A stretch of 63,676 nucleotides of DNA, counting the filler, from Octopus bimaculoides (lineage: Eukaryota), in assembly GCF_001194135.2 (NCBI RefSeq). It is 5 parts of 5 records of this genome, joined end to end, with 100 filler letters (N's around TTAATTAATTAA, not from the genome) between each part and the next. Parts side by side here need not be neighbours in the genome. Positions count along the whole stretch, not along the records: positions 1 to 26,815 come from NC_068988.1; positions 26,916 to 52,877 come from NC_068996.1; 3 more parts are not named here. One strand, 5' to 3'. Made by a program: the position numbers and the translations under genes. Of the stretch, positions 1,095 through 41,382 are shown one piece after another. Under the pieces are notes generated by a model. It did no database searches. It was not told the origin of the DNA and was given only the letters and a program-made list of their open reading frames with translations. Each line of letters opens with the position of its first letter. Position 1 is the stretch's first letter.

Positions 1095-1235
1095 AAAAAC
1101 GACAAGAGACGAAGACGGGTGTGTAAACAATAAACAGATGTATTAGTTTAACGCTCGGGAAGTGAGAAAGTCTTTTACGTTTCGAGCCTACTCTCTTCGA
1201 CAGAAAGGAACACAGAAATAAACAGGGAGAGAAAA
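1095..1235 (-). repeat. Penelope-like terminal-repeat fragment carrying a variant hammerhead (copy 1)
   Basis: Its reverse complement aligns over about 140 bp with 21745-21887 (tttatttctgtgttcctttctgtNgaagagNgtaggctcgaaacgtNaaagact...cacttcccRagcgt). Confidence 0.75.
1172..1207 (-). ncRNA. Minimal type-I hammerhead ribozyme motif, variant core
   Basis: Minus strand: cttt-CUGUCGA-a-gaga(gtag)gctc-GAAA-cgu-A-aaag. Stem I cttt/aaag, palindromic ACGU helix III, GUA triplet. A6 is U and stem II has one mismatch. Confidence 0.55.
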
Positions 1236-1349
1236 TGGTTCCATTATAATTCTTAAAGGTGAAGCCCCTGGCATGGTCGCTCTCTAATGAGTGAAACAAG
1301 TAAAAGATAAAATATAAAGCTTACACAGACGCACACTTTTATAGATATT

Positions 1350-1536
1350 AATTATTCTTTTCTACTCAAGGCACAAGGAGTGAAATTTTTGGGGAGGGGG
1401 AGCAGTCGATTAGATCGACCCCAGTAGGCAAGTGGTATTTAATTTATCGACCCTGAAAGGATGAAAGGCAAAGTCGACCTCGGTGGAATTTGAACTCAGA
1501 ACATAAAGACAGATGAAATACCGCTAAGCATTTCGC
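1350..1536 (-). mobile_element. SINE family B
   Basis: Reverse complement of the family-B body (gaaatgcttagcggtatttc...gttctgagttcaaattccaccgaggtcgactttgcctttcatcc...ggggtcgatctaatcgact...ccttgtgcc) with a TAA tail. Confidence 0.85.
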
Positions 1537-2699
1537 TGCCTATTTTCTCGCCGCTATTAATAATGCTTGATTTTCCAAAATTCATCAAGTAACGTCTACT
1601 GAAGCAAGTGTCTTCTATTATAGTGGCTGGCCAACAAAAGCCTTGTNNNNNNNNNNNNNNNNNNNNNNNNNNNNNNNNNNNNNNNNNNNNNNNNNNNNNN
1701 NNNNNNNNNNNNNNNNNNNNNNNNNNNNNNNNNNNNNNNNNNNNNNNNNNNNNNNNNNNNNNNNNNNNNNNNNNNNNNNNNNNNNNNNNNNNNNNNNNNN
1801 NNNNNNNNNNNNNNNNNNNNNNNNNNNNNNNNNNNNNNNNNNNNNNNNNNNNNNNNNNNNNNNNNNNNNNNNNNNNNNNNNNNNNNNNNNNNNNNNNNNN
1901 NNNNNNNNNNNNNNNNNNNNNNNNNNNNNNNNNNNNNNNNNNNNNNNNNNNNNNNNNNNNNNNNNNNNNNNNNNNNNNNNNNNNNNNNNNNNNNNNNNNN
2001 NNNNNNNNNNNNNNNNNNNNNNNNNNNNNNNNNNNNNNNNNNNNNNNNNNNNNNNNNNNNNNNNNNNNNNNNNNNNNNNNNNNNNNNNNNNNNNNNNNNN
2101 NNNNNNNNNNNNNNNNNNNNNNNNNNNNNNNNNNNNNNNNNNNNNNNNNNNNNNNNNNNNNNNNNNNNNNNNNNNNNNNNNNNNNNNNNNNNNNNNNNNN
2201 NNNNNNNNNNNNNNNNNNNNNNNNNNNNNNNNNNNNNNNNNNNNNNNNNNNNNNNNNNNNNNNNNNNNNNNNNNNNNNNNNNNNNNNNNNNNNNNNNNNN
2301 NNNNNNNNNNNNNNNNNNNNNNNNNNNNNNNNNNNNNNNNNNNNNNNNNNNNNNNNNNNNNNNNNNNNNNNNNNNNNNNNNNNNNNNNNNNNNNNNNNNN
2401 NNNNNNNNNNNNNNNNNNNNNNNNNNNNNNNNNNNNNNNNNNNNNNNNNNNNNNNNNNNNNNNNNNNNNNNNNNNNNNNNNNNNNNNNNNNNNNNNNNNN
2501 NNNNNNNNNNNNNNNNNNNNNNNNNNNNNNNNNNNNNNNNNNNNNNNNNNNNNNNNNNNNNNNNNNNNNNNNNNNNNNNNNNNNNNNNNNNNNNNNNTGA
2601 AGGACACGCATGCGTAGACACATACAATAGGAATACAAAATACAAAATGGCTGATAGTTAGCAAGGTGAGACACACATAAGAAAGAAGGAAACAAAGGA

Positions 2700-2739
2700 C
2701 CACTGATGAGGTCACAGAAGTGTGACGAAAGAACTCTGG
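2700..2739 (+). ncRNA. Minimal type-I hammerhead ribozyme, canonical core
   Basis: cca-CUGAUGA-g-gtcaca(gaag)tgtgac-GAAA-g(aa)cU-C|-tgg. Stem I cca/tgg, perfect 6-bp stem II, 2-bp helix III, CUC triplet; predicted cut after 2736. Confidence 0.8.
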
Positions 2740-2847
2740 CCGAAATAAGATTAAGATTAATGTAATATAAAGCTGAAGCAAATTAACACCAAATATACAG
2801 TGCGTGTGTTTTTATTGGCTAAACTGGCAATATGACCATCCCCAAGT

Positions 2848-2884
<37 letters not shown>

Positions 2885-2892
2885 TGTATGTA

Positions 2893-3085
2893 TTTGTGTG
2901 ATTGTGTTTGTTTTTCCCACTGATGTTGGTGTGTCTACGTACCCGCAACTTAGCGGCTCGGCAAAAGAGACCGATAGAATAAAGTACTAGGCTTACAAAG
3001 AATGAGTTCTAGGGGTCGACTTGTTCGACTAAAGGCGGTGCTCCAGCATGGCCGCAGCCAAATGACTGAAACACGTAAAAGATAA
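2893..3085 (+). mobile_element. SINE family A, 3' half
   Basis: aacttagcggctcggcaaaagagaccgatagaata...ggggtcgacttgttcgactaaaggcggtgctccagcatggccgcag...gactgaaaca matches the full copies at 34464 and 53383. Confidence 0.9.
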
Positions 3086-3210
3086 ATTGTCGAATTTAAC
3101 TGCTTAAAGATTTTAAGCTGCATGTATGATGTGTAAGAATATAGGAGAAAGAGACTATAGAAATGGAAGAAAATACTACAGAGGGAAATTGGAAAGGAAG
3201 GTGTATGAAC

Positions 3211-3259
<49 letters not shown>

Positions 3260-3974
3260 GAATTTGTAGGCATTTGTGTGAAATAGTTATGTGTGGGCGT
3301 ACGTATGTGTACGTTTGAGAGAGAATGAAAATGGAAGAAAAGAGAGATCGTATGAAAGAATGCGATAAGAAATAATAAAATTACATAGAAAGGAAACAGA
3401 AAATAATGGTGATGAAACCAGGTCAAAAGGAAACTCGATTTGACGAAAGAGACCGGGGAGAAATTTAGTTAGCCCCGATAGAAAATTAGTGAGGCCTTTG
3501 CTGTAGAGTAGGATTCACCTTGAAACACAAATGATCACCTTGTAAGGTTTTATATTATCTCTGAACGTTTGAGAATTGCCATTAACTCTTTTACAAGCGG
3601 ACTACTAACTCTTCAGGCAAGAACTGGAATTACACGAGAAACGTTTATTTGGCTGCAACATTTAATCTACAGTGTCGGTCATAATCTGTTCGAAGACGAT
3701 ATTGGAAAAGTATCATAGAGTTGACTTTGTAAATAGTAGAGATGGAGTTTATTGAATTCTCATTCAATAAATAAATTTGCTATTGGATTTTTTACGTGTG
3801 ACTAATGTTGAACGCGTTTGAATTCAAACATTTTAAGTATTTTCGAGGGAATTTTAGCACAAGGCCATAAATTTTGCGGGGTGAGAGACAAGGCGATTAC
3901 ATCGACCTCAGTACTTGACTGTTACTTTATTTTATCGATCTCAAACAAGTAATTGTGAAATTTACTCCGGCTCT

Positions 3975-4345
3975 TAACAGTCGGCAAGAGAGTACGATAG
4001 AATAAGTGCTAAGCTTACAAAGAATAAGTCCTGGGGTCGATTTTCTCGACTAAAGGCGGTGCTCCAGTATGGCCGCAGTCAAATGACAGAAACAAACAAA
4101 AGAATAAAAGAATATATATATATATACATGTGTGTGTGTGTGTGTGTTTGTGTATCTTCATGTGCAGACCTGTCTGCTGCCAAACTCGCAAGTATCTTCT
4201 ACTATAACTCCGGGCCAACTCATGCCTTGTGAGTGAATTTAGCAAACGGTAACCATGTGGAAACAAATGGATTTGTTCGACTAAATCATTGATGGTGGTG
4301 TCACAGCATGGCCGCATACCAATACCTGAAACAAGTAAAGGATAA
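3975..4345 (+). mobile_element. Two SINE family A fragments (3975-4105 and 4183-4345)
   Basis: Same tail motif (ggggtcgattt...cgactaaaggcggtgctccag) and body motif (caagtatcttctactata...ccttgtgagtgaattt). Confidence 0.8.
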
Positions 4346-6290
4346 ACGATATAGGCATGTAGGTACGCATACATGCATCTACCAATTTCTTTCATTTTTA
4401 TCAGCTGAATTTTGTTGAAGGAACACACTGCTCGTATTTCTCACATATCTTGTAACCGCATAGAACCTATTTTCATTATTGTATCTGACAGATCTGGACG
4501 TATAATCGTTACTTTAAAATTCTCTGTTAAATTTCCATTTTGTTTTGCTGCTATTTTTTTTTTTCACTGTTTTTTTATTTAGTATACACTTTTATTTTTT
4601 TAATATTTTTATCAAATGAAATCCATTTCCATCTCGCAATTTTTGTTGCTTTTTGCTTTTTTTGTTTTCTGTTTTCTTTTTATGAGTGTGTGTGTGTGTG
4701 TGTGTGTTTTGTTTTCCTATCTCATCAATGGTTGCTGTGACATTTCCGTTCAGTGAAGTATTTATTTATAGACTAGAACAGATCGATGGCCAGATGCTGT
4801 TGGTTTTCATGGACGTTTCAAAACTGCTTAACACTCGTTTACTTATACTCTGGATAAAAGAATATTGATCGTTGCTGCTTCTCATCTACTATAAGATTAA
4901 AAATTTTCTATTCCTGTGTGACAAAGAGTTTATCAGAAAACAAACCATAAAAAGAAGTGGCTTTTTTTTTTTTCAAATTTTGTTATTTTTAATTACAAGA
5001 TATTAGTTTTTTCCGTTTGGTATTGTCTTAATGTTTTTAAAATTGTGTCATGCAAGCAAGAAGGTATTTGTAAACCTCTCCGTATATCAGTTAGTCTATC
5101 CGTGTGTCTCTCGCCCTTCACACACTCATAAATATATGCATATTTATATATAACCCTCAAATATTTGCATGTATGTAGTTCAGTCTTTATATGTGTGTGT
5201 GTGTGTGTGTGTATCTCCGTATAGAGGAAAGAGAGATTGACATACACATTCACACACATGCACATATATATTATAGACAAACACACAATTTATATTTATA
5301 AATGCATATATAAATACACACACATATATATGCATATATATATATATATTTGTTATAACTTACATAGATGCATATATTTACGTATATATATATATATATA
5401 TACTTTGTAACTTATGTGTATAAGTGTGTATATATTGTAAGTATTATATATTTTATATATATATATATATATATANNNNNNNNNNNNNNNNNNNNNNNNN
5501 NNNNNNNNNNNNNNNNNNNNNNNNNNNNNNNNNNNNNNNNNNNNNNNNNNNNNNNNNNNNNNNNNNNNNNNNNNNNNNNNNNNNNNNNNNNNNNNNNNNN
5601 NNNNNNNNNNNNNNNNNNNNNNNNNNNNNNNNNNNNNNNNNNNNNNNNNNNNNNNNNNNNNNNNNNNNNNNNNNTTTCTCTCTCATTTTGTTAATAACAT
5701 GTACATATTGCAAAGCCAAGGATGTTTCTCTTTCCCATTCAATATAATCTTTCAACAGATTTCCATGTTTCTTTCTCTTCTTCTCGCTTCTTTTTTTCTC
5801 CCCTTCTTTTCCATGATATTCAGTATCTACGCCAGCGCGAATTAAATTCTATTGAACACATAATTAGATAACACCGGATATATACGCGGATATATATATG
5901 TGTACGTACGTACGTGTGTGTGTTTGTATATGTGTACGTACGTGTGTATACGTGTGAAAATGTGTGATAGTGCGTTTATTTGTGTGCGTAATATGTTTCC
6001 TCATCTACTGAGATATATCCAAATACAGAGGGTTCGGTTTGTTTGAATGAGATTTCTGCAAGGCGGTGCCCCAACATGGTGCACCGCCTTGAAATTACTG
6101 CTTATTATTGCAAATACTGGAAAATACATTTTACTGAGTGGTTACATATCAAAAGAGAAAACTGGAAAGTTTTGTGTATTCTATATTTAGCATTCCTGTT
6201 TTTTTTATTCGTTTTTAATATTTTTTAATTTACACTGAGACATAGTAAAACTTCATACCGAGAATTAAAATAATAAAGTATTATTCTAAT

Positions 6291-6387
6291 CTCCGTCTGA
6301 AGAATCACTAAATAGAAGATGTCTTACTTGCCTTTTTTACGCGTATAATACGTAATTTCTATTGGTAATGAAACATATGTAATGCAG
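6291..6387 (+). ncRNA. Type-I hammerhead ribozyme motif with long stem II
   Basis: ctccgt-CUGAAGA-atcactaaatagaag...tttctattggtaat-GAAA-catatgU-A|-atgcag. Helix III ACAUAUGU is a perfect palindrome; GUA triplet; stem I 5/6 paired; stem II about 13 bp. Confidence 0.65.
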
Positions 6388-6436
6388 AATAAATTATGCT
6401 AAAATGTTTTTCTAATTCCCTGTTTTCATAATTACA

Positions 6437-6483
<47 letters not shown>

Positions 6484-6687: not shown

Positions 6688-6732
<45 letters not shown>

Positions 6733-7644: not shown

Positions 7645-7990
7645 CACTGTTTCTCAACCGAAGTCTATATATATCCTCTGAGGATTCATGTAAGATTTCT
7701 GGGAGTCCACCCAACAAATAGTAAATTGGGGATCCGCAATAGTATTTTGAGGGTCCCTGAAAAAAATCGTTTTAGATATTTGTATTGGTATATATAACAA
7801 GAAACAGTCAGCGTTCTTTCTCCAAAATTTTACATAGTTCCGCCGTAACAAGTTATGTGAAAAACAAAATAGGAATTTTGAAAGCAGTTTCTATAAAGCT
7901 ACTTTTTAGACATTGAATGGCTACGGGGGTCCACCGGAATGAAATATTAATCAAAGGGGTCCATAGATTAAAAATGGTTGAGAACATCTG
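7645..7990 (+). mobile_element. hAT/Charlie-type MITE, copy 1
   Basis: Termini cactgtttctcaacc...ggttgagaacatctg; internal sequence matches 26916, 29898 and 49764; no clear TSD. Confidence 0.8.
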
Positions 7991-8279
7991 GTGTTATGTA
8001 ACACTACTGAGTCGTGGTAAAGAAAAATAGATAAAGCTACCTATTCACTAGCGAGTGTAGGACACTCAACGTGGTCCCACGACTTACGTAAAATAACAGC
8101 TGAATTCTTTGTAGTCTTACTATAATGTCTAACTCTAGAAGGAAAATTGTTTAAATGTTATATGGAGAATGGATAATGTGGGGTTATGAAGTGGATTATC
8201 TCCAGTCGTAAACGGCAGATGGCGTTTCTGCAATTTCTTGTCGAACAACGTGTAGAGTTGATTTCTTTATAGTAATCAA

Positions 8280-13944: not shown

Positions 13945-13992
13945 GCCTTACAGCTGTTTCACGGTTATTATGGATATCCATTCATCAGAGAC
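13945..13992 (-). ncRNA. Minimal type-I hammerhead ribozyme, canonical core
   Basis: Minus strand: gtct-CUGAUGA-atggatat(ccata)ataaccgt-GAAA-cagctgU-A|-aggc. Helix III ACAGCUGU is a perfect palindrome; GUA triplet; stem II 7/8 paired. Confidence 0.75.
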
Positions 13993-16099: not shown

Positions 16100-16503
16100 A
16101 TAAGTTACGCTGAAGCAATTATCTTTGACGCAAAGATCAGCTTTAACAAGCCAAAGAAAGTTCTTAAACATCATGTCTACTTGTGTGGTAGAATGTGAAT
16201 TAATCCAGCGATATTTTAGCTACACTCTTTCTTTCGGGAACAAAGAAAAGAGGAAATAACTAACATACTAACATGTCAAATTGTGTTTGAACATCGATAC
16301 AATATGGCTGTACATTAGATATAATATAGAATATCTTCGACAGATGTAAACCATGCAGAAATGGAACTAATATATGCGCATTATGCACAGCTGAAAATAA
16401 CCTAATACCCATGAACTTCAATAAATCTGCTGACTGTTTAAAATTCAGAGTAGAGATCTTCATCAAATTCCATCACTTCGATAAACTCCTGATGAAAGAC
16501 TGA
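16100..16503 (+). pseudogene. Penelope-like retroelement GIY-YIG endonuclease C-terminal relic
   Basis: Hand translation across stops and frameshifts: ECELIQRYFSYTLSFGNKEKR...MSNCV*TSIQYGCTLDII*NIFDRCKPCRNGTNICALCTAE...LKFRVEIFIKFHHFDKLLMKD*. Matches the PLE pattern F..RY..H..SF / W.I / CxLC..E / R.E...KCRH..KFLL and the 35.4-kb relic. Confidence 0.75.
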
Positions 16504-17157
16504 AATGTTATTTTACCAGGTACTACTATATGCCTGAATGGGTTAACTAACACCTATTTACATAGAAAATTTACATACTCGCACTTTCCTTCTTAAATAC
16601 CACAGCTATGTATCGTATTCATATTCTCTCCCTTTTTCTATACGCATTATGAGTTGCTTTTTACCTCAGTCATCCAATATAGGTGTTGAACTTTTGAAGA
16701 ACAGAATCTTTTCTGTTTCTTAACTTCATTAGACTTAAAGGAAATAATTCTCACCAAATTAGTTATGAATGAAAGATATTTCTTTCACTACATAAGATAT
16801 GTGTTCAATTTTCTTTTCTCTAATCAAAACTAGATAAATATTACCTCAAAATCAAAGTTCGTTTCTATTTCATCATTTGTATTCTCCGTCAGTCTCAAGG
16901 AAATGAAAGCAGCTCAAAATATATATCAGATAAGTAATGAACTCTGATACTTATCATATTTTAACTCGGGCATACTTGATCGGAAGTTTCGAAAAGCTTA
17001 TAAATAACTTTTTTTTAGATATATATAGTTGTAATAAAAGATATTACTTGACTTGAGGTGGGTTTAGTTTACACATCACATACCTGTATGTGTATATGTA
17101 TGTGTGTATACATATATAGAAATACATATACATATATACATATATGTATAAATGTAC

Positions 17158-20660: not shown

Positions 20661-21005
20661 TACATATGCACTTGCCCACTTATCACCATACTGTTTCAAA
20701 GATGCTATGGCATAAAAAAAAACACACAAATTGATGGAAATTACGATGTTCGACTCTTTTAACAGCGTTTAAAGTCTACTTCATTTAATTGTTTATAGCC
20801 ACATGACTTGCTAATGAATGGAAGAAACTCCGCCCCATTTTTCAATGGCCGTTTCTCTTCAGTTGAAAAATTAAATCACAAAATTAAGTTCGCAGATGTG
20901 TTATAGATATTGAATATTTCCATTGCAGATTGTTTTACGTTTTGATTGTAATTTTATTGGACATAATATGGTAAGAACGAAAAGATAAAAATAAACATCG
21001 TTCAT

Positions 21006-21398
21006 CTTTTATCTTGTAATTCTTTCAGTCATTAGACTGCACTGCGGCCATGTTGGAGCACCGCCTTGAAAAATTTTAGTCGAACGAATCAACCGCAGTA
21101 CTTGTTTTATTTAATTTCTTTTTTTTAATCTAGTATTTATTCTGTTCGGTTTCTTTTGGCGAATTGCAATCTTACGAGGATATAAACATACCAACACCGA
21201 TTTCAAACAATGTGTGTGTGAGGGGAACAAACACAGACACAAATACTATAGCATCCGACTACTAAATCCACTCAAAAGTCTTTGGTCGGCCCGCGGCTAT
21301 AAAAGAAGATACTTGCCCAGTGTGCCACCCAGTAGGTCTGAACCCGGAACCATGTGGCTGGGAAACAAGCTTCTTACCACACAGCCATGCCGACTCCT
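21006..21398 (-). mobile_element. SINE family A, near full length
   Basis: Reverse complement runs from the head (ggctgtgtggtaagaagcttg...ggttccgggttcag) to the tail (gactgaaag). Confidence 0.85.
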
Positions 21399-21744
21399 AT
21401 GTTGTTATCAAAAAAGAAACAAAATGGTATTGGATGGGGTATATGTCGAACAGCGAGAATTGAAACACTAAGATGTCCATTCTTAATAGGCTCTTTACGT
21501 TCCGGAAGATAGGAACGGGAATAATGAGCATAATTACTGGTATATTTCGTCAATGGAGAACCTTCCACGTAGACCTGTGGGTTCCAGCCACTTTTGGATC
21601 TTGACTCCTCTGATTCCTGTTTTATTCTTATGGAACTCTATTAGCCATTCGCTAACCCTATTATATTTTTAGAATTAAATATTAAGAATATAGAAAAGTG
21701 TTAAAACCGAAAGAAGTCCGTCGTATAGATCACTGGCCACTACA

Positions 21745-21887
21745 CATTCTTTTTTTTTTCTCTCCTTGTTTATTTCTGTGTTCCTTTCTGTGGAAGAGCG
21801 TAGGCTCGAAACGTTAAAGACTTTTTCACTTCCCAAGCGTTATACTAATACATCTGTTTCTTGTCTACACCACCTGTCTTCGTCTTT
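21745..21887 (+). repeat. Penelope-like terminal-repeat fragment carrying a variant hammerhead (copy 2)
   Basis: Homologous to the reverse complement of 1095-1235; truncated by a 10-N gap. Confidence 0.75.
21784..21819 (+). ncRNA. Minimal type-I hammerhead ribozyme motif, variant core
   Basis: cttt-CUGUGGA-a-gagc(gtag)gctc-GAAA-cgU-U|-aaag. Perfect 4-bp stems I and II, palindromic ACGU helix III; A6 is U, with an extra A after A9. Confidence 0.6.
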
Positions 21888-21916
21888 NNNNNNNNNNATA
21901 TATATATATATATATA

Positions 21917-22140
21917 TATATAAGTGTGTGTCTTTGGATCTATCTTTGACCCCCATCACCGCTTGACAACGGGTGTTGTTATGTTTACGTCCTCGTAACT
22001 TAGTGGCTTGACAAAAAGAGACCGATAGAATGAGTACCAGGCTTTAAAATAAAAAAAGTACTGGGGTCGATTCGTTCAACTAAAATTCTTCAGGTGCTGC
22101 CCCAGCATGGCCGCAGTTTGATGACTGAAACAAGTAAACG
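21917..22140 (+). mobile_element. SINE family A, 3' half
   Basis: cccccatcaccgcttgacaac...gtaacttag...agagaccgatagaat...ggggtcgattcgttc...ccagcatggccgcag...gactgaaacaagtaaa. Confidence 0.85.
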
Positions 22141-22304
22141 AAAAACAATGTTTTGTGTACGGTAGAATTATAAGGAATTTATTGCAGATAAATTTAAACA
22201 ACAAAACATTATATGGAACCCAAAGGTGATATCGAGTCTGGTTGAGAGCCATAGCTTTCAACGATGCGTGATTAGAACATGCGTGGTTTACTGGTGTAAG
22301 GGTA

Positions 22305-22354
22305 TTTCACGACACCGCGGTGTTTCGACTCTATTGTGTGTCTCCTCAGTCAAA
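22305..22354 (-). ncRNA. Minimal type-I hammerhead ribozyme, canonical core
   Basis: Minus strand: CUGAGGA-gac(acacaataga)gtc-GAAA-caccgcggtgU-C|. Helix III ACACCGCGGUGU is a perfect 12-nt palindrome; GUC triplet; G10.1-C11.1 present; proximal stem I imperfect. Confidence 0.75.
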
Positions 22355-23679
22355 GCTATACCGCTGGACCGATTCATCTGACAATATCACGGGCTCTTGT
22401 TTTATAGGAATTAGCAAACACATTATTCATTGATGCGTGTAGATGTCTGCTAAACAGATAATGATTCATGGGGTGAATACAGAACAAGGGGAATCTAAAC
22501 GATAACATATCTATTCAGTCTTATTACGTTTTTGGCAAAACGTATCATATCGCTGAATCGTGTGTTTATCATAATGTTACATTTATTTATTTTAAAGTTA
22601 GTAATTGAAGAAGATCAAAACTACAAAACAAAATTAGTATAGATACATTTATCTCTACTTACCAACCTCTTTGTCTCTAATGCCCATATAAAATTCTCCA
22701 CCTTCCGGGGGTTAATATAACCTATTTAGAGAATCACTATGGCATCGGAAGAGTCCAATGAAAGCCTCATGTGCAATTCTGTACAGAAATAAAAGATAAA
22801 TTACTTTAAACAATTATTTTTTGCATTTAAATAATTTTATGCTTTTTCATGATCGGATGCTGCTTTTTTTTTTCTTTGCAATTATATTTGCATTCGCTGA
22901 ATTCTCAAGAGAATCTAAAATAGCATTGGAATACATTTACAGGAGTGCAATTTTCTTTATTATTATTAATGTCATGGTGACTTATTTCAAAATGCATGTA
23001 ATGTGTGGCTTTGACTGTACAATCCCACTGTACATATTTACGACCTAGAGTAGGTTAAAAGTTTGCAGCATACTGATAACAGATTAGGCGAAAGAAAAGA
23101 GAAAAAAAAAACGTTATTGACAAAGATAACGATGATTTGTAAGTTAAACAATAAATGTTACAATATGCTTTCATTTCACGTTCAAAGGCTTACTTTAATT
23201 TTCCAACTTGCAAAAAATGTTCTTCTCTCTCCACTCAATTTTCTGTTACGCTGACTCTTATTGAAATTCTCGGGAAAAAAAGATTGACTTCAAATAATAT
23301 AGATCCTTTCTTTTCTAATGTATTTTTTAAAATTATTTTTAATCCTTTACATTATTCTATCTTCCGTTTATTTATTCACATGGACGTAAAGACAAATTAT
23401 ATCGGATTATGTACATTGAGGAAAATATACTTAAGAACCTTATCGTATAAAAAGAAGGGCACGTAGTAGAGTTGAAAATAATTTAGGTTATATTTTACCA
23501 AAACTTAGGGGTTCAATCCTAAGCCGATGAAGGGATATTGTTTATTGAGACCACTTAATGCTGAGTTTACTATTGCTGCTGTTGTTGATGTTGTTGTTGT
23601 TGCTACTGTTGTTATCCCCGAGTCGGCCAATGAACAATGATATTTAAGGCAAACATCGCTTAATCATTGTTAGCTGCAA

Positions 23680-23849
23680 CAAGTGAGGTGTTCTCCACAT
23701 GTTACTCTTCAGGCCAAGGATATCTTGATTAAATGAAATGTTTCATTGTCACAAGAAGGTACTGGTTGATGCCTGGAATGTTCAATCAGAGTGATTGATA
23801 TCAAGATATCCTCAGCCTGAAGCGTAGCGTATGGTATAAACCTCGCTTG
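23680..23849. repeat. Foldback element with about 50-bp inverted arms
   Basis: Arm 23680-23729 pairs with 23800-23849; the inner 22 bp (ttcaggccaaggatatcttgat vs atcaagatatcctcagcctgaa) match 20/22. Confidence 0.7.
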
Positions 23850-26915: not shown

Positions 26916-27237
26916 TTCTTAACTATATTTTATCTGTAGAACCCCTTTGATTACTATTTTATTCTGATGGACCCCCTTGGCTATTCGTTATTTAAAAACT
27001 AGTTTAAAAACTTCTTTCAAAATTCCTATTTTGTTTTTCAAACATTAACTTGTGTAGGTTGAAGTACGTAAAATGTTAGAGAAAGGCACTTAGATGATTC
27101 TTGCAATACCATACCAATACATACATCTAAAGCAAAGTGTTTTCAGGGACCCTAAAAATACTGTTGTGGATCCCCAATTTATTATTTTGTTGCATGGATC
27201 CCCAAAATCTTCTATTGAGCCGGATGAGGACCACTGC
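26916..27237 (-). mobile_element. hAT/Charlie-type MITE, copy 2
   Basis: Collinear with 49764-50069 and with the reverse complement of 7645-7990; ends ggatgaggaccactg. Confidence 0.8.
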
Positions 27238-27466
27238 TTTAGTGATTAGGATGGTTATGGTTTTGTTTGGTTTCCCCACGAGTAGTCCGTTTAAATCTTC
27301 CTCTCCTTACAGGAATTATTCGTTGTTAGAATTTATTGCTATTGTTACTCCTGTATTTGCACACTCTTTCATGTAAATCCACATTGTACCATCCTGTGCC
27401 ATCCTAAGTATATTTCGTAAGCCCCTAGTGGTTAATCCCAGAAAACATAGTCGTTGTTTTCGTTAT

Positions 27467-27700
27467 AAGGTCGCAAGCTGGCAGAATCACTTGCAGTGCC
27501 AGGCAAAATGCTTAGCAGCATTTCATTCGTCTTTATGTTCTGAGTCCAAATCCCACCGTGAGCGACTTCGTCTTTCATCCTTTGGCGGTCGATCAAACAA
27601 GTACCAACGGAACACAGGGGTCAATGTAATCGAACCAAATAACCTCCACTCCTACCCTACCCTTAAAATGAGCTGGCCTTGTGCCAAAATTTGAAATTAT
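27467..27700 (+). mobile_element. SINE family B
   Basis: aaggtcgcaagctggcagaatc...aaatgcttagcagcatttc...gttctgagtccaaatccc...ggccttgtgccaaaat. Confidence 0.85.
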
Positions 27701-29897: not shown

Positions 29898-30205
29898 CAG
29901 GGGTTCTGAACCGGGTTCCACACGGACCCTGGGGATCCATATAAGATTTGGGGCGTGGGATCCACGGTAATTTTTCAGAGACCATGAAAAAATTGTACGT
30001 CAGACCAGTAAAGTTTAGGTGAAATAAATTGGTTTTACGTCCATAATACACAAAATATTTTAACAATTAGTTTTATACAATTCCTAATAATATTTGATTA
30101 TAAAAATACAATAGGATTTTTTTAAACATCGAATGGCTATGGGGGTCCACCCAAGTAAAATAAGAATCAGAAGTCTCCATGGGAAAAAATGGTTGAGAAC
30201 TCCGG
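29898..30205 (+). mobile_element. hAT/Charlie-type MITE, copy 3, with perfect 8-bp TSD
   Basis: TIRs caggggttctgaacc / ggttgagaactccgg; AGCTAGAC at 29890-29897 and 30206-30213. Confidence 0.9.
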
Positions 30206-31261: not shown

Positions 31262-32231
31262 NNNNNNNNNNNNNNNNNNNNNNNNNNNNNNNNNNNNNNN
31301 NNNNNNNNNNNNNNNNNNNNNNNNNNNNNNNNNNNNNNNNNNNNNNNNNNNNNNNNNNNNNNNNNNNNNNNNNNNNNNNNNNNNNNNNNNNNNNNNNNNN
31401 NNNNNNNNNNNNNNNNNNNNNNNNNNNNNNNNNNNNNNNNNNNNNNNNNNNNNNNNNNNNNNNNNNNNNNNNNNNNNNNNNNNNNNNNNNNNNNNNNNNN
31501 NNNNNNNNNNNNNNNNNNNNNNNNNNNNNNNNNNNNNNNNNNNNNNNNNNNNNNNNNNNNNNNNNNNNNNNNNNNNNNNNNNNNNNNNNNNNNNNNNNNN
31601 NNNNNNNNNNNNNNNNNNNNNNNNNNNNNNNNNNNNNNNNNNNNNNNNNNNNNNNNNNNNNNNNNNNNNNNNNNNNNNNNNNNNNNNNNNNNNNNNNNNN
31701 NNNNNNNNNNNNNNNNNNNNNNNNNNNNNNNNNNNNNNNNNNNNNNNNNNNNNNNNNNNNNNNNNNNNNNNNNNNNNNNNNNNNNNNNNNNNNNNNNNNN
31801 NNNNNNNNNNNNNNNNNNNNNNNNNNNNNNNNNNNNNNNNNNNNNNNNNNNNNNNNNNNNNNNNNNNNNNNNNNNNNNNNNNNNNNNNNNNNNNNNNNNN
31901 NNNNNNNNNNNNNNNNNNNNNNNNNNNNNNNNNNNNNNNNNNNNNNNNNNNNNNNNNNNNNNNNNNNNNNNNNNNNNNNNNNNNNNNNNNNNNNNNNNNN
32001 NNNNNNNNNNNNNNNNNNNNNNNNNNNNNNNNNNNNNNNNNNNNNNNNNNNNNNNNNNNNNNNNNNNNNNNNNNNNNNNNNNNNNNNNNNNNNNNNNNNN
32101 NNNNNNNNNNNNNNNNNNNNNNNNNNNNNNNNNNNNNNNNNNNNNNNNNNNNNNNNNNNNNNNNNNNNNNNNNNNNNNNNNNNNNNNNNNNNNNNNNNNN
32201 NNNNNNNNNNNATATATATATATATATATAC

Positions 32232-32392
32232 ATATATACGACGGGTTTCTTTCAGTTTCCGTCTACGAAATCCACTCACAAGGCTTTGGTCGGCCCGAGG
32301 CTATAGTAGAAGACACTTGCCCAAGGTGCTACGCAGTGGGACTGAACCCAGAACCATGTGGTTGGCAAGCAAGCTACTTACCACACAGCCAC
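32232..32392 (-). mobile_element. SINE family A, 5' half
   Basis: cgacgggtttctttcagtttccgtctacgaaatccactcacaaggctttggtcggcccgagg...accacacagcc. Confidence 0.9.
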
Positions 32393-33050
32393 ATATATAT
32401 ACATACACGCAATCATAGCTCACCCAGTATATATTATGTTGGATAGAGCTGAGCTTTATAGTTAATAACTAAACATTTTGATAAAATAAGTAAAGAAAAT
32501 GGAGAGATTAGTAGCCATTGGTTAATATAATATTTATTAGAAAAATGTCTAGTTTGAAAAGTTTCTAAGACTCCAGAGTGACCAGTCAATCAATCGATAA
32601 TCAATCAATCAGTCAGTCAACCAATCATTCAATGAATCAGTCTGTCAGTCAATGAGTTAAATATTGATTGATAACAATGATGTCTATTTGGATAATTGAA
32701 TATGTTGGCCAAGAGAATGATGGCAATGTTGGTACACACTACATTTAAATCATTTTAGGAACATAAAATAATAGCAACGAAGATATATTTTCTTTAGGTG
32801 TGTATATCTGGTTAGCTGACATATCAGATGTATTTTATTATATAATTCTTAAACGTTTGAAAATGCTTCGCTGAATTTTCTTTAACTTATATCTTAGGTA
32901 AATTAGGTTTAGCTTATTATTGGCTCTAGCCATGTCTAACTTAATAACAACACTCTATTGAGTTGTTTTAAAGTCATATTTAAGGACCTCATTGCCCTTT
33001 TCAAAGCAGAGAGTTGTTGTCTGCCGAGATGTATCCAAGTTGGAGTTGGG

Positions 33051-33122: not shown

Positions 33123-34184
33123 TCTCTCTCTCTCATATATATATGAGAGTGCATGTATGTGTATAGCCTCGAAAAACTCTGAAACGGGGCATCCTCGAGA
33201 AAAATGGATTTGGCTTTCAAAATCTACGTCGCAAAGATAAGGCTTTCGGTAAACAATAATCGAAAAAATTTGATACGAGAAATAACTCAACTTTTAGATC
33301 ACTAAATCTCCTTCTTTTTATCTGTCACATTTGTCTCTCTCTCTCTCTCTGTCTTTTATACTCCCCCTCTCTACATATTTACTCTCTCACTCTTTTCTCT
33401 GTAGATGTATATTTCTCACACATACTGCTCCTCCTCCTTCTCCTCCTCTCTCTTTCTCTCTCTATCTCTCTTTCGTGATATGACATGTAATTGGATACAT
33501 TTTGTTTAAAATTTAGTCGCTGTAATGTTTACTTCCCTTTTTAGATATCACACAGAAAATGCTAGCTTCCAAATCCTGTTTCTCGATTCGATAAAAATTA
33601 TCGAACTTTAAACGTCTGTAACATTTTCCTGAATTTTTTTTTCTGGAATAAAGGAATCACAAAATCAGATTCAGTGTGAAAAATTACATCAGTATACCAA
33701 ATTTGAAAATTTTCACTTAATTTCAAAATTTCAAAATTTGTGACAGCAACAAAAATTATCCCTTCTTTTTATGTATCCGTTTCCTAGCATAGGATGCATC
33801 GATTAGATGATAAGCGCACAAGTGCCTCTGTCGCACAGACTCAGGAGACGACGTCCCATTTCCATTCAAACGACTTCAATTTCCAGTGAGTCTTAGTTTT
33901 ACCATGCCTACCGACAAATCGCAAGGGCAAGCATTATCGGTTGCTGGTTTACTCCTTGAAGATCCCTGCTTCACCTATGATCAGATTTATGTAGGATATT
34001 CAAGGGTTGGAAGTAAAGCAAATCTCTACATCTATGCACGAAATGGAAAAGCAAAAACAAACTTTGTTTATCGTGAAATTATAAATTGCCCCAAATAATA
34101 CCGAAACATGTCCTGACCAAGAGGCCTTCAAGGCATTCTATTGTCAAAATTGTCCGGCAACAATAGGCTGGCCTACTCAGCTAG
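33123..34184 (+). mobile_element. Internally deleted Helitron
   Basis: 3' end taggc-tg-gccta hairpin (34164-34175) + CTAG (34181-34184) followed by T; PIF1-helicase C-terminus inside. The 5' A|TC at 33122/33123 is inferred. Confidence 0.7.
33847..34098 (+). pseudogene. Helitron RepHel PIF1-helicase C-terminal fragment
   Basis: DDVPFPFKRLQFPVSLSFTMPTDKSQGQALSVAGLLLEDPCFTYDQIYVGYSRVG...NFVYREI matches the Helitron motif FKRLQFPV.L.FAMTINKSQGQ....CF.HGQLYVA.SRV. Confidence 0.9.
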
Positions 34185-34463: not shown

Positions 34464-34868
34464 AGGCGCAGGCGTGGCCGTGTGGTAAGAAGCTTGCTTC
34501 CCAGCCACATGCTTCCGGGTTCAGTCCCACTGCGCGGCATCTTGAGCAAATCCTATAGACGCTGGCCGACCAGACCAAAGCCTTGTGAGTGGATTTGGTA
34601 GACGGAAACTGAAAGAAGCCCGTCGTATATATATATATACACATATGCATGTATGTATGTGTATATGTGTGTGTTTGTGTATCTGTGTTTGTTCCTCCAC
34701 CATCGCTTGACAACCAATGTTGTGCTTACGTCCCCGTAATTTAGCGGTTTGGCAAAAGTGACGGATAGAATAAGTACTAGGCTTTAAAAAATAAGTCCTG
34801 GGGTCGATTTGTTCGACTAAAAGTGGTGCTCTAGCATGGCTGCAGCCAAACAAGTAAAAGAATAAAAG
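34464..34868 (+). mobile_element. SINE family A, full length (tRNA head + CORE-like centre)
   Basis: A box tggccgtgtggt, B box gggttcagtccc, internal microsatellite, tail ggggtcgatttgttcgactaaa...aagtaaaaga. Confidence 0.9.
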
Positions 34869-35006
34869 AATTTGTTGACAGTGTTATGACAATTTTTTTA
34901 GTTAACATGAAACCTCCGACTTTTCAATGGAATTACGATCGAATAGTTCTCACATTAATTCCTCTGCTTGCAGGTTGTCATTTTTTATATATAAAAAAAA
35001 ATATTG

Positions 35007-35179: not shown

Positions 35180-36244
35180 TGCAAATCATGCTAAGACGAC
35201 GCCATATTGCCTCCGTCGTATTTTAATGAATATTTGTACAAAATAACTGATTTGTATTAGGTTATCAGATAAATTCGTTTGTTTTCCCCTCGCCTACTTT
35301 GCACACTATCTGAAAAAGAGAGAAAAATTTATTCAGATTTCAAAAGTGATTAACAAAATTTGTAAAGGAAGAACTACAAAAAAAAAAAGATTACAATCAA
35401 GAGCCTACTTCCAGTTGTAATTGTCGAGACCCAGAAACTTGTCCATTCGACCAGGGGTGCATAATTAAATCCGTTATATTTGAGTAAGAAGTTGCAGCAA
35501 CGCTAGATGATAACATAACCGAAACGAAGAGTCATATTGAGTTAATTATGTGAAGACGACTTCAGAAATCGCTATACTAGCCACTAAGTTGGCTAGCCAC
35601 GTATGGGGTTTGAAGTCTAAACCATACGCAACATAGAATGAAGTAGAAAACTGTTGAAAATCCATGCCATATGTTAATGGATCAATAAAAAGCAAGCTAT
35701 GCGTAGCTGAATATCGCAGATCCTTTTCAGATCAAGGATCTCCACTGCACTGCTGAATTCCAGATCTGAAATTTTCAGCGGATGTAAAGATATGACGCAG
35801 AAGAAGCTGTGTGGTAAGAAGCTTCCTTCTCAACTACATGGTTCAGGTTTCAGTCCTACTGCGTGACACCTTCTCTTCTAATATAGCCTTGGGCCGACCA
35901 AAGTCTTGTGAGTGAATTTGGTAGACGGAAACATGAAAGAAACCCGTCGTATATGTATATGTGTGTCTTTGTGTCTATGTTTGTACCCCACTACCAATTG
36001 ACAATCGGTGTTGGTGTGTTTACGCCCCTGTAACTTAGCGGTTCGGCAAAAGAGAACAATAGAATAAGTATCAGATTTAAGAAAATATAAGTCCTGGGGT
36101 CGATTCAGTCAACATTCAAAAATTCTTCAAAGCGGTGCTCCAGCATGACCGCAGTCTAATGACAGAAACAAGTAAAAGATAAAAGATATGGATAAGTTCC
36201 TGTTGGCGAACTGGAAAATACCACTCTCTCTCCGAATTGAGTAG
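35180..36244 (+). pseudogene. Penelope-like retroelement linker + GIY-YIG relic, interrupted by a SINE
   Basis: EPTSSCNCRDPETCPFDQGCIIKSVIFE*EV...CEDDFRNRYTSH...SHVWGLK...PYVNGSIKSKLCVAE...LNSRSEIFSGCKDM[SINE]DKFLLANWKIPLSLRIE*; multiple stops and frameshifts. The start coordinate is approximate. Confidence 0.8.
35795..36181 (+). mobile_element. SINE family A with 9-bp TSD AAAGATATG
   Basis: TSD at 35786-35794 and 36182-36190; removing the SINE rejoins the PLE reading frame. Confidence 0.9.
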
Positions 36245-36595: not shown

Positions 36596-36685
<90 letters not shown>

Positions 36686-37369
36686 TATGTATATATATAC
36701 ACTCACACACATGTATATATATACACATGTGTGTGTGTGTGTGTGTGTTTCTATATATATATGTATGTATACATATATACACACAAAGCTGTATACATAT
36801 GCCCATACACGGACACACCGTGTGGATAACACAACATATGACTAAACTAAAAACATAAGCGGTATATCATGTGACTAAAGAGCGACTGTGAACCAAAATA
36901 TGCTGTTCTGTGTGTGTGTGTGTTTGAGAGAGAGAGAGAGAGAAATAAACGGCAGGACACAGTGAATAGTGTCGCTGTAGGTATATAACACCTGAAGAAA
37001 AAACGGTATAATTAGCGATTAGGAAATGCCTTTCATCATATATCTGTTCAACCAGCACTGACCTGGGCCGAAGCAACAACACCGCTGTTGAAGCCAAAGG
37101 ACACAACGTGATGTAATCGAAATCATATGTCCCAAAGTGTTTATTGGATCGATATTTATGATTCACTGCCTTTCTTTATGATTTAAGAGAATTATAAATA
37201 ATAATACATTTTGTTGATTCAAAAATATGTTCGACAATCTGTAGCGTTTCTTCTCCCCCACTCTCTCTTTCTCTCTCTCTCTCCCCCCTCTCTTACTCCT
37301 GTCGCTGAGAAGTAACAGGTGTATTGCTTTGCCTTTATTCAAATTTATCTTGATATTATTGTTGTTGTT

Positions 37370-37520
37370 GCCGTTGTTATTTAACCCCGAGACAGGACTG
37401 ATCCAGTAGGTTTATGATCGGTGTACTCCAACCACTAAGGCCGTCCTGTCTTTTTTGTATAAGAACTAGATTATCCCGAGGTATTCTGCTTATTAAGGAC
37501 GGTTGGGTGTGATCCAGAGG
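37370..37520 (-). mobile_element. SINE-like family D fragment with (CAA)n tail
   Basis: ttgttgttg...ttaacccc...ctgatccag...tatgatc...ccgtcctgtctttttt. Confidence 0.45.
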
Positions 37521-37600
37521 AGATGGTAGCAGCTGAAGCGACTGCGTCGAGCTTTTGTCTTCATTGTTGAACGTGTTTGTGTCCAAATATTTAGTAAGCA

Positions 37601-37685
<85 letters not shown>

Positions 37686-38927
37686 NNNNNNNNNNNNNNN
37701 NNNNNNNNNNNNNNNNNNNNNNNNNNNNNNNNNNNNNNNNNNNNNNNNNNNNNNNNNNNNNNNNNNNNNNNNNNNNNNNNNNNNNNNNNNNNNNNNNNNN
37801 NNNNNNNNNNNNNNNNNNNNNNNNNNNNNNNNNNNNNNNNNNNNNNNNNNNNNNNNNNNNNNNNNNNNNNNNNNNNNNNNNNNNNNNNNNNNNNNNNNNN
37901 NNNNNNNNNNNNNNNNNNNNNNNNNNNNNNNNNNNNNNNNNNNNNNNNNNNNNNNNNNNNNNNNNNNNNNNNNNNNNNNNNNNNNNNNNNNNNNNNNNNN
38001 NNNNNNNNNNNNNNNNNNNNNNNNNNNNNNNNNNNNNNNNNNNNNNNNNNNNNNNNNNNNNNNNNNNNNNNNNNNNNNNNNNNNNNNNNNNNNNNNNNNN
38101 NNNNNNNNNNNNNNNNNNNNNNNNNNNNNNNNNNNNNNNNNNNNNNNNNNNNNNNNNNNNNNNNNNNNNNNNNNNNNNNNNNNNNNNNNNNNNNNNNNNN
38201 NNNNNNNNNNNNNNNNNNNNNNNNNNNNNNNNNNNNNNNNNNNNNNNNNNNNNNNNNNNNNNNNNNNNNNNNNNNNNNNNNNNNNNNNNNNNNNNNNNNN
38301 NNNNNNNNNNNNNNNNNNNNNNNNNNNNNNNNNNNNNNNNNNNNNNNNNNNNNNNNNNNNNNNNNNNNNNNNNNNNNNNNNNNNNNNNNNNNNNNNNNNN
38401 NNNNNNNNNNNNNNNNNNNNNNNNNNNNNNNNNNNNNNNNNNNNNNNNNNNNNNNNNNNNNNNNNNNNNNNNNNNNNNNNNNNNNNNNNNNNNNNNNNNN
38501 NNNNNNNNNNNNNNNNNNNNNNNNNNNNNNNNNNNNNNNNNNNNNNNNNNNNNNNNNNNNNNNNNNNNNNNNNNNNNNNNNNNNNNNNNNNNNNNNNNNA
38601 TCGTTAGTTGAATTCGACTTTTCTGTGATTAGTGTATTTACATGTGTATATAGAACAGGGAAATCAAAATAGTTTGGCTTTGCGGGTCATAATGAAATGT
38701 AAGGAGATATAGCGTGCCGGATAGGGACAATTATTCCTCAAAACTTCTATTCATAATGTATGTCAAAGTAAATAGATTAAGGGATCAGTTTACATTAAAG
38801 AAAGGAAAGACTATGAGGTATTAGAGAAATTTGGGTCCAAATATAAGTGGGGAAAAGATCATCCTCACGGTGTATAATGTGTGTGTGTGTACATGTGTGT
38901 GGGTCTATATGTGTGCGGGTGTGCGCG

Positions 38928-38929
<2 letters not shown>

Positions 38930-38959
<30 letters not shown>

Positions 38960-39133
38960 TGTATGTATGTATGTATATGCAAATATAAGTCCTGGGACTA
39001 AAAACCCTTCCAAGGAGATGCTCTCGAATGGCCGCAGTCAAATGACTGAAACAAGTAAAAGATATGTATATATATGTGTGTGTGTATGTATATACATACG
39101 TATTTATGTATATACATGTATATATATATACAG

Positions 39134-39178
<45 letters not shown>

Positions 39179-39180
39179 TA
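38930..39180 (+). repeat. (TATG)n and (GATA)n microsatellites around a SINE A tail (38985-39062)
   Basis: Direct inspection; tail ataagtcctgg...tggccgcagtcaaatgactgaaacaagtaaaaga. Confidence 0.85.
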
Positions 39181-40541
39181 TGCTTATATGTGTGTGTGTG
39201 TGTGTATGCATATACATGTATGTGTGCGTATACATATATATGTGTGTGTGTGTGTGTGTATGCATATACACACTCACTCATACATACATACATACATACA
39301 TAGATAAATAGGTCAACATGTAATTATTTAATGTCTAACTTTTTCCCTGATGATATATTTTGTTCATAACTTATAAATGCAAACTTAATGCATAAATTTG
39401 TAATTTATCCAATGACTATAAATGGAAACAACTGAAGGAAGAAATGATTATTAATTTATTAATGAATAGATATTAACAACTAACTCTCCATTTTCCAAAG
39501 ACATAAGCTATAGAACCAATGTTTTCTTGGATCTAATCATCCCTTTAAGAAGTTAATATATCCTCTAATTAACTTATATATGTATGTATGTTTGTATGTA
39601 TATGTATACATATTTTGTATTTCATACCTTATTATATTTAATAATATTATATTATATTTGTTATATTATTATATTATATCTGATTTGTTTATCCGCAAAA
39701 TTACATCTATATCCGCTGTACATGATCCGTCTTATAGCCATTCTTTACCGTGTGGAGTCGATCCCCTGTAAAGATATTGGAGTCTAAGTTTGAATCTTTT
39801 GAGCACTAGTGTTTTCTGTACTGAGAATCCCTGGATCTCATCTGTGGACTGTACATGTATGTATGCATGTACGTATACACACACATCATATAGCGCGCGC
39901 GCGCACACACACACACGCACACATACACACGCACGGTTTCAGCAAGAAAAGATTTTCAATATCGTTCATAACCACTGGAAACCATTCAGACAAACTCGTC
40001 CCACACGCTCGCTTTCGTTGGATTCGACGTGTATAGACAAAGAGAAAAGAAATACGTCTCGTCTTTTAGTCTACATAAGACTCATAAGCTCCTTTTCTAT
40101 TGGTTGAGATAACAAAAGTTGCGTTGATTTGACTAATCGGAGCAGGTCTTGCTATATTTTTATAGAATATATGAATTTTTTTTTTTTTTAATGATTATAA
40201 TTTTCTTTTCTACAAAACTGAGCCAGAGGTTCGACTAAAAACCATCGCAGGCTCAAACCGGCTTGTAAGCCGATTGTTTGACACACCTGCTATGGTGTAT
40301 AGTTTATCAACCCCAAAGAGATAATAGACAAGTAAAAGTCGGTGAGCAGGAATAAAATCACAGGAGAAAAAAAAAATGATGCCACTTTTCATTTAAATAC
40401 GCCGAGTAAGATTTAAAATAATTAAAAAAATAATAATTTAACCCAATTATTAGCTAACCATACGGCTTGTACACAAGAGCAACACAATTTGTATAATGAC
40501 TTAACAGGCAAGATCCTTCGGTATTGGTCTCCAGAGTGTCG

Positions 40542-40641
40542 GTATGCGGAGACGACGCCATTCACCCTCGTTTTCAGCCTAGCCTCTTTATCTGTATCAT
40601 GAGGGAAGGCTGTGTGGGTGAATGAAGTCGTCTCCCAATAC
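40542..40641. other. 100-nt imperfect hairpin in unique, GC-richer sequence
   Basis: gtat..ggagacgac..cattcaccc / gggtgaatg..gtcgtctcc..atac, plus inner cagcct/aggctg and cctc/gagg. Confidence 0.55.
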
Positions 40642-41280
40642 TACATAACATATGCATAAAAAGAAAATCAAGTTTTAGTCAATACTTTCAATACAAGTTT
40701 TTTTTAATGATATTTGTGTGCGGCGTTTTTTTCTTTCCTATCTCTATCTCTATTCATCGCTGGCACGATTTGAACCCAAAACCTAACGCGAAGTAGCTAA
40801 ATATCAAAGTCAGTTTATTCCAATTTGCGTAACAACGGTTATGCTATGAACTTCATAAGTTCGTAACATGACCATAGTTTTTCCTGCATCGGTTCTTTTT
40901 CTTATTCTTATTACTGCTCTATACTCGTCTAGCACTTTGTTCTGAAGCATACGCGTATATTGAGTTCTTCGCCAAGTTTATTAGTCAGGCAATACCTGAG
41001 CGAAACACACACACACATATATATATAATATAACTTACGTTATAATTGTGATTTATTCATAATTATAAACACTTCTTATATATATATAATTTAAGGTGTT
41101 TTCCTTTAGGAACGTACTAGGGTACAAAATAGAACTCATTCAGCCTCCGAATTACCAATTAGCCGGTAGTATTAACCATATACTTCCAAGTTTAGGTTTA
41201 GGCATTCATCGTGTGTGAAAATAAAATTGAATAAAATAGAGTCAACAAGAAGGAGTACGGTTAGACAGCTACTTAATAAA

Positions 41281-41382
41281 CGCTACACATATTTCGATAC
41301 AACATAGATCTACATATATATAGGATTTAAAGTAAGCAACGGTTTACCTGTAGAATGGGATCCAGTTGTATCTCTTCAGGTG
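41281..41382 (-). ncRNA. Type-I hammerhead ribozyme motif with extended stem II
   Basis: Minus strand: cac-CUGAAGA-gatacaac(61 nt)gttgtatc-GAAA-tatgtgU-A|-gcg. Perfect 8-bp stem II, extendable by tggatc/gatcta; helix III AUAUGUGU (wobble palindrome); GUA triplet; stem I weak. Confidence 0.65.

Follow-up and report, generated by a model that had tools for sequence, protein, structure and literature searches.

Seven hammerhead ribozyme motifs in Octopus bimaculoides DNA: probable remnants of Penelope-like elements, including a high-copy repeat with a U6 core

Seven hammerhead ribozyme motifs are dispersed over 41 kb of DNA from Octopus bimaculoides, which raises the question of whether they cut the transcripts that cross them or are passengers of former transposable elements. 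The stretch analysed, referred to as the window, is a joined sequence of 63,676 nt, including 8,531 N. It is AT-rich and microsatellite-rich and contains several repeats resembling SINEs (short interspersed nuclear elements) in many copies. All motif counts and repeat comparisons were made within the window and not by a whole-genome search. The motifs are type-I minimal hammerheads that very probably derive from the terminal repeats (pLTRs) of several families of Penelope-like elements (PLEs) and were likely scattered as short 5'-truncated products; they are mostly decayed and predicted to be catalytically silent passengers. As a class, they belong to genomic fossils of a known kind. What stands out is a core with U in place of A6, which is the majority form in a huge repeat family of two species.

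The seven motifs and their excess over chance

A preliminary description of this DNA had reported the seven motifs, and all of them were recovered. Their cores start at 1203 (-), 2703 (+), 6297 (+), 13988 (-), 21788 (+), 22349 (-) and 41379 (-), with predicted cleavage after H17 at 1176, 2736, 6381, 13949, 21815, 22311 and 41284, respectively. The type-I core (C3-U4-G5-A6-N7-G8-A9, G12-A13-A14, A15.1-U16.1 and H17) is complete in five motifs, which carry CUGANGA. The remaining two (1203 and 21788), already set apart as variants, carry CUGU(C/G)GA and deviate by A6U only. A multi-base change was rejected for this variant, as a single A6U together with the standard extra nucleotide accounts for the core. 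Helix III is self-complementary in six of the seven, in agreement with the palindromes noted before. An exact type-I layout had been assigned to the five other motifs; their cores bear this out, but decay is apparent in 22349, 41379, 2703 and 6297.

The main descriptor was fitted post hoc to hold all seven motifs and then applied unchanged to controls. It finds five motifs with CUGANGA or seven with CUG[A/U]NGA, compared with means of 0.09-0.29 in local block-wise dinucleotide shuffles (0.15-0.29 for the all-seven count), and in all four settings, with 200 shuffles each, the observed count was never reached. In a decoy-core control on the real window, 179 decoys gave a mean of 0.13 and a maximum of 2. 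A strict descriptor retains two motifs against a shuffle mean of 0.05, with one of 150 shuffles reaching two, and looser descriptors find three to six against means of 0.16-0.77. The density is thus far above that of dinucleotide shuffles, a control that the preliminary description had proposed. Folding z-scores are unremarkable in six of the seven motifs. The motifs are real hammerhead ribozyme sequences, and the set stands above chance by a margin that is large despite the post hoc fit. A further match at 44198 (-), obtained under the most relaxed cores, lies within chance (0.57 expected) and was discarded.

Pairwise alignment separates the motifs into six unrelated sequence types, as one of 21 pairs (1203/21788) beats shuffles; each of the other five types occurs once in the window. 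This pair, the 1172-/21784+ sequence type, is referred to as family A. The earlier count of about six unrelated repeat families therefore stands for the sequence types, but multi-copy status was demonstrated for one of them. Certain structural details recur across the types. Stem I has at least three contiguous pairs from 2.1 in five motifs, and fails at or beside 2.1-1.1 in 22349 and 41379. An extra nucleotide between 9 and 10.1 and a G10.1-C11.1 pair are both found in 1203, 2703 and 21788; 22349 and 41379 have G10.1-C11.1 without the extra nucleotide. The motifs 6297 and 13988 contain either an A-U pair or an extra A plus a U before GAA, as in the Hydra clade of PLEs.

Both family A motifs are minimal type-I hammerheads. 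Copy 1 (1172-1207, -) has a stem I of 4 bp, the A6U core with N7=C, an extra A, helix III ACGU and H17=A; its stem II comprises 3 bp, the fourth pair being broken. Copy 2 (21784-21819, +) combines a 4-bp stem I, U6 at 21791, N7=G at 21792, an extra A, a 4-bp stem II with G10.1-C11.1, helix III ACGU and H17=U, and is structurally clean apart from U6. The minimal hammerhead at 2697-2741 (+) contains CUGAUGA, an extra G, a 6-bp stem II with G10.1-C11.1 and H17=C. It is located about 100 bp away from a 951-N gap, and its stem I consists of 3 bp, a bulge and 2 bp. Its helix III is not palindromic, which is likely a result of decay.

The hammerhead at 6290-6388 (+), with CUGAAGA, a long imperfect stem II (A10.1-U11.1), an 8-nt palindromic helix III and H17=A, has mismatches in stems I and II; its layout is like that of Hydra-clade PLE motifs. 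A possible decayed inverted copy of its 5' half, head to head at 6243-6275 (-), is not significant, its score being reached at 31 of 150 random sites. At 13945-13992 (-), CUGAUGA is combined with a stem II of 4+3 bp, an 8-nt palindromic helix III, H17=A and a 4-bp stem I. This is the sole canonical-core copy with strict stems and palindrome, but the hammerhead fold is 6.2 kcal/mol less stable than the minimum free energy (MFE) structure. For 2703, 21788 and 6297, the hammerhead fold is within 0.1-2.2 kcal/mol of the MFE.

The hammerhead at 22305-22355 (-) has CUGAGGA, a 3-bp stem II, a 12-nt palindromic helix III, H17=C and a mismatch at 2.1-1.1. An alternative downstream half suggested by another descriptor was set aside; Rfam also aligns the parse with the 12-nt palindrome. 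An imperfect 19-nt inverted repeat (22240-22258 and 22352-22370) flanks this motif and could lengthen stem I over a long range or supply an alternative downstream half. The seventh hammerhead (41281-41382, -) contains CUGAAGA, an 8-bp stem II around a long insert, a wobble-palindromic helix III and H17=A. Its stem I is largely broken, with one contiguous pair, and the MFE structure is 9.6 kcal/mol more stable than its hammerhead fold. Directly upstream, an inverted duplication (41404-41473), whose score is equalled by two of 150 random sites, resembles the inverted 5'-truncated copy typical of PLE insertions. Elsewhere, at 23700-23830 (-), two CUGANGA heptamers lie within an imperfect inverted repeat, where the remaining hammerhead parts are absent under any descriptor.

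Family A and its U6 core

Family A is the only one of the six types that was examined for copy number. Copy 1 of the repeat (1076-1235, -) comprises the 3'-terminal part after 5' truncation and terminates in a short TA run. Copy 2 (21726-21887, +) extends to a 10-N gap, behind which (TA)n follows. The two share 91.5% identity over 130 bp and lie 20 kb apart on opposite strands. Four public runs, two of DNA contigs and two of RNA, were mapped to 21400-21887 at 85% likeness. The region attracted 13,958 DNA contigs from organism A and 16,118 from organism B, giving a summed depth at the motif of approximately 127,000 times (A) and 99,000 times (B) that of the unique flank. As overlapping contigs inflate summed depth, this value is not a copy number and is read as an order of magnitude only: two species carry roughly 10^4-10^5 copies, and the repeat is very abundant in both organisms.

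At 21723-21739, the depth falls to about 2,700 times (A) and 130 times (B) that of the unique flank, so in most copies the 5' truncation falls shortly upstream of the motif. The loose ends consist of (TA)n before 21752, in 153 and 107 RNA reads, and behind 21885. The 3' end is fixed and followed by TA, as in the window copy at 1076, and the 5' ends are ragged. The motif is covered up to twice as deeply as the 3' flank; this is consistent with subfamilies that have the motif in common, though private flank changes of copy 2 also lower the mapping. In organism B, the unique flank of copy 2 (21423-21727) is matched by an orthologous contig, which stops at the 5' boundary of the repeat. Within this flank, a short AT-rich piece (21655-21688) reaches a summed depth of about 24,000 in the DNA runs and is apparently part of another repeat.

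The core of family A reads C3-U4-G5-U6-N7-G8-A9 with one extra A, followed by a stem II with G10.1-C11.1, GAA, ACGU, H17 and a 4-bp stem I. At position 6, U is the majority letter, the loose-end consensus is also U, and no variant appears among the sites listed; the lowest variant rows listed have a share of about one third, so that a minority with A6 is compatible with the data. The best-supported variable sites listed inside the 36-nt motif are N7, with C at 18-34% and U at 22-45%, and H17, with A at 28-79%. Loop II carries a one-letter deletion in 5-8% of RNA reads. The chance of both substitution sites falling among the seven free positions is 0.033, but variation at the constrained motif positions is not significantly lower than in the flanks (Fisher 0.11-0.20).

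Because U replaces A6 of the catalytic core, A6U is expected to weaken cleavage further, and family A is predicted to be weakly cutting or non-cutting. No description of a natural A6U hammerhead core was found in open-access full text; Lunse 2017, Repbase and Dfam may contain one. Open-access full text likewise yielded no description of these hammerhead families in octopus, and the family A motif pattern had no matches in metagenome and prokaryote contigs. It is conceivable, albeit doubtful, that this Penelope-derived octopus family, with 10^4-10^5 copies in at least two species, keeps an undescribed A6U hammerhead across its subfamilies because selection acts on the fold, which would serve as a slow ribozyme gated by protein or metal, or else as an RNA signal without catalysis for the reverse transcriptase of the element. 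Selection on the fold would then follow from U6 being constant while N7 and H17 vary. If true, family A would amount to a test run by nature of whether cleavage by PLE hammerheads is needed at all.

RNA evidence was obtained for family A from two raw RNA runs, with about 6 in 100 of each read. Totals of 2,319 and 1,513 reads mapped to the repeat (0 and 2 at 99% identity or more), corresponding to 130-180 reads per million records. The RNA depth over the unique flank of copy 2 is 0. Fractions of 0.91 and 0.89 of the reads continue into unlike sequence, and first mates are equal on both strands. It follows from the unlike continuations and the empty flank that family A rides passively in many other transcripts and that copy 2 is not seen expressed. 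The preliminary description had pointed to RNA-seq ends and circular RNAs at the predicted site as a check. For family A, neither of the two RNA runs shows a pile-up of read ends or a depth dip at 21815/21816, or a recurrent circle joint at the cleavage site. A few joints lead back within the repeat, revealing that rare partial tandems exist. Within the limits of libraries that look unstranded and may lose short products, the RNA pattern makes it unlikely that family A cuts host transcripts efficiently.

Origin of the motifs and surrounding relics

The favoured explanation assigns the motifs to PLEs, because they match the published consensus in the extra nucleotide after A9, the G10.1-C11.1 pair, the short or palindromic helix III and the short stem I without loop 1. 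The earlier assignment to type-I minimal or dimer-type hammerheads of the PLE kind agrees with this match. Each motif would derive from the 3' terminal repeat (pLTR) of a PLE family, although no motif adjoins a recognisable open reading frame (ORF) in the window. Target-primed reverse transcription starting near the 3' end and stopping early would deposit short pieces carrying the motif at AT-rich or (TA)n sites. This step is visible in outline for family A, which shows the 5' truncation, fixed 3' end and (TA)n target expected of a PLE, and is presumed for the remaining types. In the partial-tandem RNA of a source element, two motifs may pair via helix III and cleave slowly or with the help of the element's protein, as the literature suggests. 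Solo decaying copies are predicted to be silent because they have no partner copy. A6U would lower cleavage further, and family A probably multiplied with its fold retained and self-cleavage slight or absent.

The three Penelope ORF relics mentioned in the preliminary description are all present, one of them with support from search tools and two by eye. The tool-supported relic (62532-63676, -) is frameshifted and comprises the C-terminal part of the reverse transcriptase with an RYxxD motif, a linker and a GIY-YIG domain. It has 1,054 homologues at E up to 0.001, the closest being a protein listed under Octopus bimaculoides with 59% identity, which points to an octopus as the probable host, and a sub-threshold GIY-YIG match occurs in one of 12 scanned homologues. 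The second relic (35230-35790, +), likely of the Hydra clade, contains the thumb end, a CxC linker and GIY-YIG; it carries stops and frameshifts, and a SINE interrupts its 3' end. The third (16110-16503, +) is an endonuclease relic, likely also of the Hydra clade. The latter two were recognised by comparison with the alignment of Craig 2021 (PMC8557442). A homologue search with two relic fragments scored nothing, direct comparison of the two by-eye relics gave an E of 0.014 over 15 residues, and the Atlas comparison of the 16330 fragment was uninformative (best 0.81). Thirty window ORFs searched against Pfam gave only sub-threshold chance matches, with neither a host gene nor confirmation of the two by-eye relics. 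A possible eighth hammerhead (16529-16578, +) lies some 30 nt past the stop codon that closes the 16110-16503 relic; heavily decayed, with a broken core and missed by all descriptors, it is only a weak lead.

Several observations weigh against this explanation. Multi-copy status was demonstrated for one of the six types, namely family A. None of the motifs lies next to a PLE ORF that can be recognised: 150 proteins in tblastn and a hidden Markov model from 129 of them match only the 62532-63676 relic, these probes being homologues of that relic and covering one PLE clade. Between the stop of this relic and the next microsatellite, no hammerhead is present. Six short motifs from these loci and the family A motif were not found in the accessible part of the Craig 2021 supplement (PMC8557442). 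The RNA test is weak, as the libraries look unstranded and standard RNA-seq loses short cleavage products and maybe small circles. Finally, the hammerhead models of Rfam, another check proposed earlier, gave no match in the window at gathering score. The best match was Hammerhead_1 at 22304-22355 with 18 bits against a cut-off of 34; 13988, 2703 and 21788 had no Rfam hammerhead match at E up to 10, and the matches listed for the whole window at E up to 5 were dominated by microsatellite microRNA-like ones.

An improbable alternative is that the motifs are monomers or remnants of non-LTR retrozymes (LTR, long terminal repeat), tandem repeats of 150-400 bp that give rise to circular RNAs. Retrozyme motifs are also of type I, and their families often include solo monomers and derive from pLTRs (Li 2026). 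The rare partial tandems of family A would suit such an origin, and the assembly gaps beside 21788 and 2703 could hide a partner. However, no motif lies in a tandem array and self-BLAST of the window revealed no second unit, so a retrozyme setting, mentioned in the preliminary description as one place where such motifs occur, was not borne out. The missing circle joint in family A RNA argues in the same direction, and ragged 5' ends with a fixed 3' end suit truncated retrotransposition better than unit-length monomers.

It is quite unlikely that the motifs are active solo ribozymes cutting host read-through or intronic transcripts, as had been proposed. In favour of activity are the intact CUGANGA core of five motifs, the near-MFE folds of 2703, 21788 and 6297, the 12-nt helix III of 22349, which can close as a monomer hairpin, and the presence of family A in RNA. 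Against this, most copies have broken stems or would need a partner of the same family and orientation, of which the window holds none, and single minimal motifs show no cleavage in the published assays accessible (PMC4209133). Furthermore, the Pfam search identified no host gene, and the RNA reads of family A neither end nor thin out at the predicted site. Chance matches in AT-rich, hairpin-rich repetitive DNA, which the post hoc descriptor, the z-scores and the Rfam result might suggest and which leave one or at most two of the weakest motifs (41379, 22349) questionable on stem I alone, are refuted for the set by the shuffles, by the decoy cores, none of which came near the count, and by features beyond what chance needs (the extra nucleotide, G10.1-C11.1 and palindromes of 8-12 nt right after GAA), and are hardly credible.

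The remainder of the window contains further repeats. Two SINE-like groups, which we take to be octopus SINEs, are abundant and often joined to (TA)n or (CA)n runs. Examples of the first are located at 2856-3086, 21000-21400, 21898-22150, 32218-32416, 34464-34875, 35783-36194, 41866-42282 and 53379-53816, and of the second at 1344-1536, 27454-27633, 42735-42868, 43774-44958 and 46216-46471. A third dispersed family of about 300 bp, with 75-78% identity, is found at 7687-7992, 26916-27221, 49762-50064 and 30119-30203. A relic at 33814-34095 (+) resembles, by eye, a Helitron/PIF1 helicase C-terminus, with no Pfam match. Fragments at 46490-46650 (-) and 57780-57955 (+) likewise resemble, by eye, transposases of the Tc1/mariner and Tigger types, with no Pfam match in the frames tested. 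At 62279-62444, an exact 78-bp duplication flanks a 10-N gap and is probably an assembly overlap artefact.

Comparison with known systems

The closest known counterparts are the minimal hammerhead ribozymes (min-HHRs) described by Cervera and De la Pena 2014 (PMC4209133), which occur in thousands per genome, mostly solo in truncated PLEs. Their consensus is CUGANGAH G..C GAAAN palindrome NUH; single motifs were inactive and dimers weak. The molluscs covered in the accessible part of that work include Lottia and Crassostrea, and no octopus. The motifs of the window share the type-I order, the short stem I without loop 1, the CG palindrome in helix III and the occurrence of many families per genome, and 1203, 2703 and 21788 also have the extra nucleotide after A9 with G10.1-C11.1. 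They differ in that ORF linkage is not seen here and that U6 of family A is absent from the examined rows of Fig. S3, in which U3-A8 is the sole core variant. Small-stem-III dimer hammerheads of PLEs (Lunse, Weinberg and Breaker 2017), summarised in PMC6765202, also have a short palindromic helix III, as the motifs here do, and cleave as dimers.

A second group of relatives is formed by Hydra-clade PLEs. Craig 2021 (PMC8557442, File S2) lists Hydra-1_Obim of Octopus bimaculoides, with a canonical hammerhead at 2403 of 2507 and a (TA)n preference. According to the accessible parts of that source, motifs of this clade have a 4-bp ACA..UGU helix III and a U before GAA, and Naiads are without hammerheads. 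The motifs 6297, 13988, 22349 and 41379 resemble this type in their helix III of at least 4 bp of the ACA..UGU type, often a U before GAA, a position near the 3' end and a (TA)n target, and two ORF relics of the window resemble the clade. The hammerhead of Hydra-1_Obim itself is unlike all seven, as its stems differ.

Non-LTR retrozymes (Cervera and de la Pena 2020, PMC7229834; Li 2026, bioRxiv 10.64898/2026.07.22.740005) likewise carry a type-I hammerhead in pLTR-related non-coding repeats. The motifs described here differ in having no tandem units, no circular RNA signal and no canonical 6-bp helix I with loop 1. Li 2026 reports that retrozymes derive from pLTRs and that eight of nine tested dimers remained uncleaved.

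Hammerheads have been noted in cephalopods before: the giant squid genome contains 235 Rfam hammerhead_1 loci (PMC6962438). In O. vulgaris, PLEs account for 6.83% of the genome in 190 families, and the accessible supplement rows contain no ribozyme mention (PMC13282606). The class is ordinary for PLE-rich animal genomes; thus, seven motifs in 41 kb mainly show that pLTR fragments missed by Rfam are strewn throughout octopus DNA.

Among PLEs, Naiads do without a hammerhead, and an anole motif is protein-assisted and dispensable in vitro. As reported in the accessible text of Frangieh 2024 (PMC11167929), a PLE hammerhead cleaves only with protein, is dispensable for insertion in vitro and shows no RNA-seq ends at its site. 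Family A, which is very successful and carries U where changes lower activity, would make it possible to ask directly whether selection acts on cleavage or on the fold alone. The nearest parallel to its core is the natural A6C variant of phage Bcep176, which has low activity and a preference for Mn2+ (PMC3088659, PMC7151607). Both are substituted at core position 6, and a lower activity would be expected for A6U as well. The phage variant is a single copy, whereas A6U is the majority form in a very large eukaryotic repeat family.

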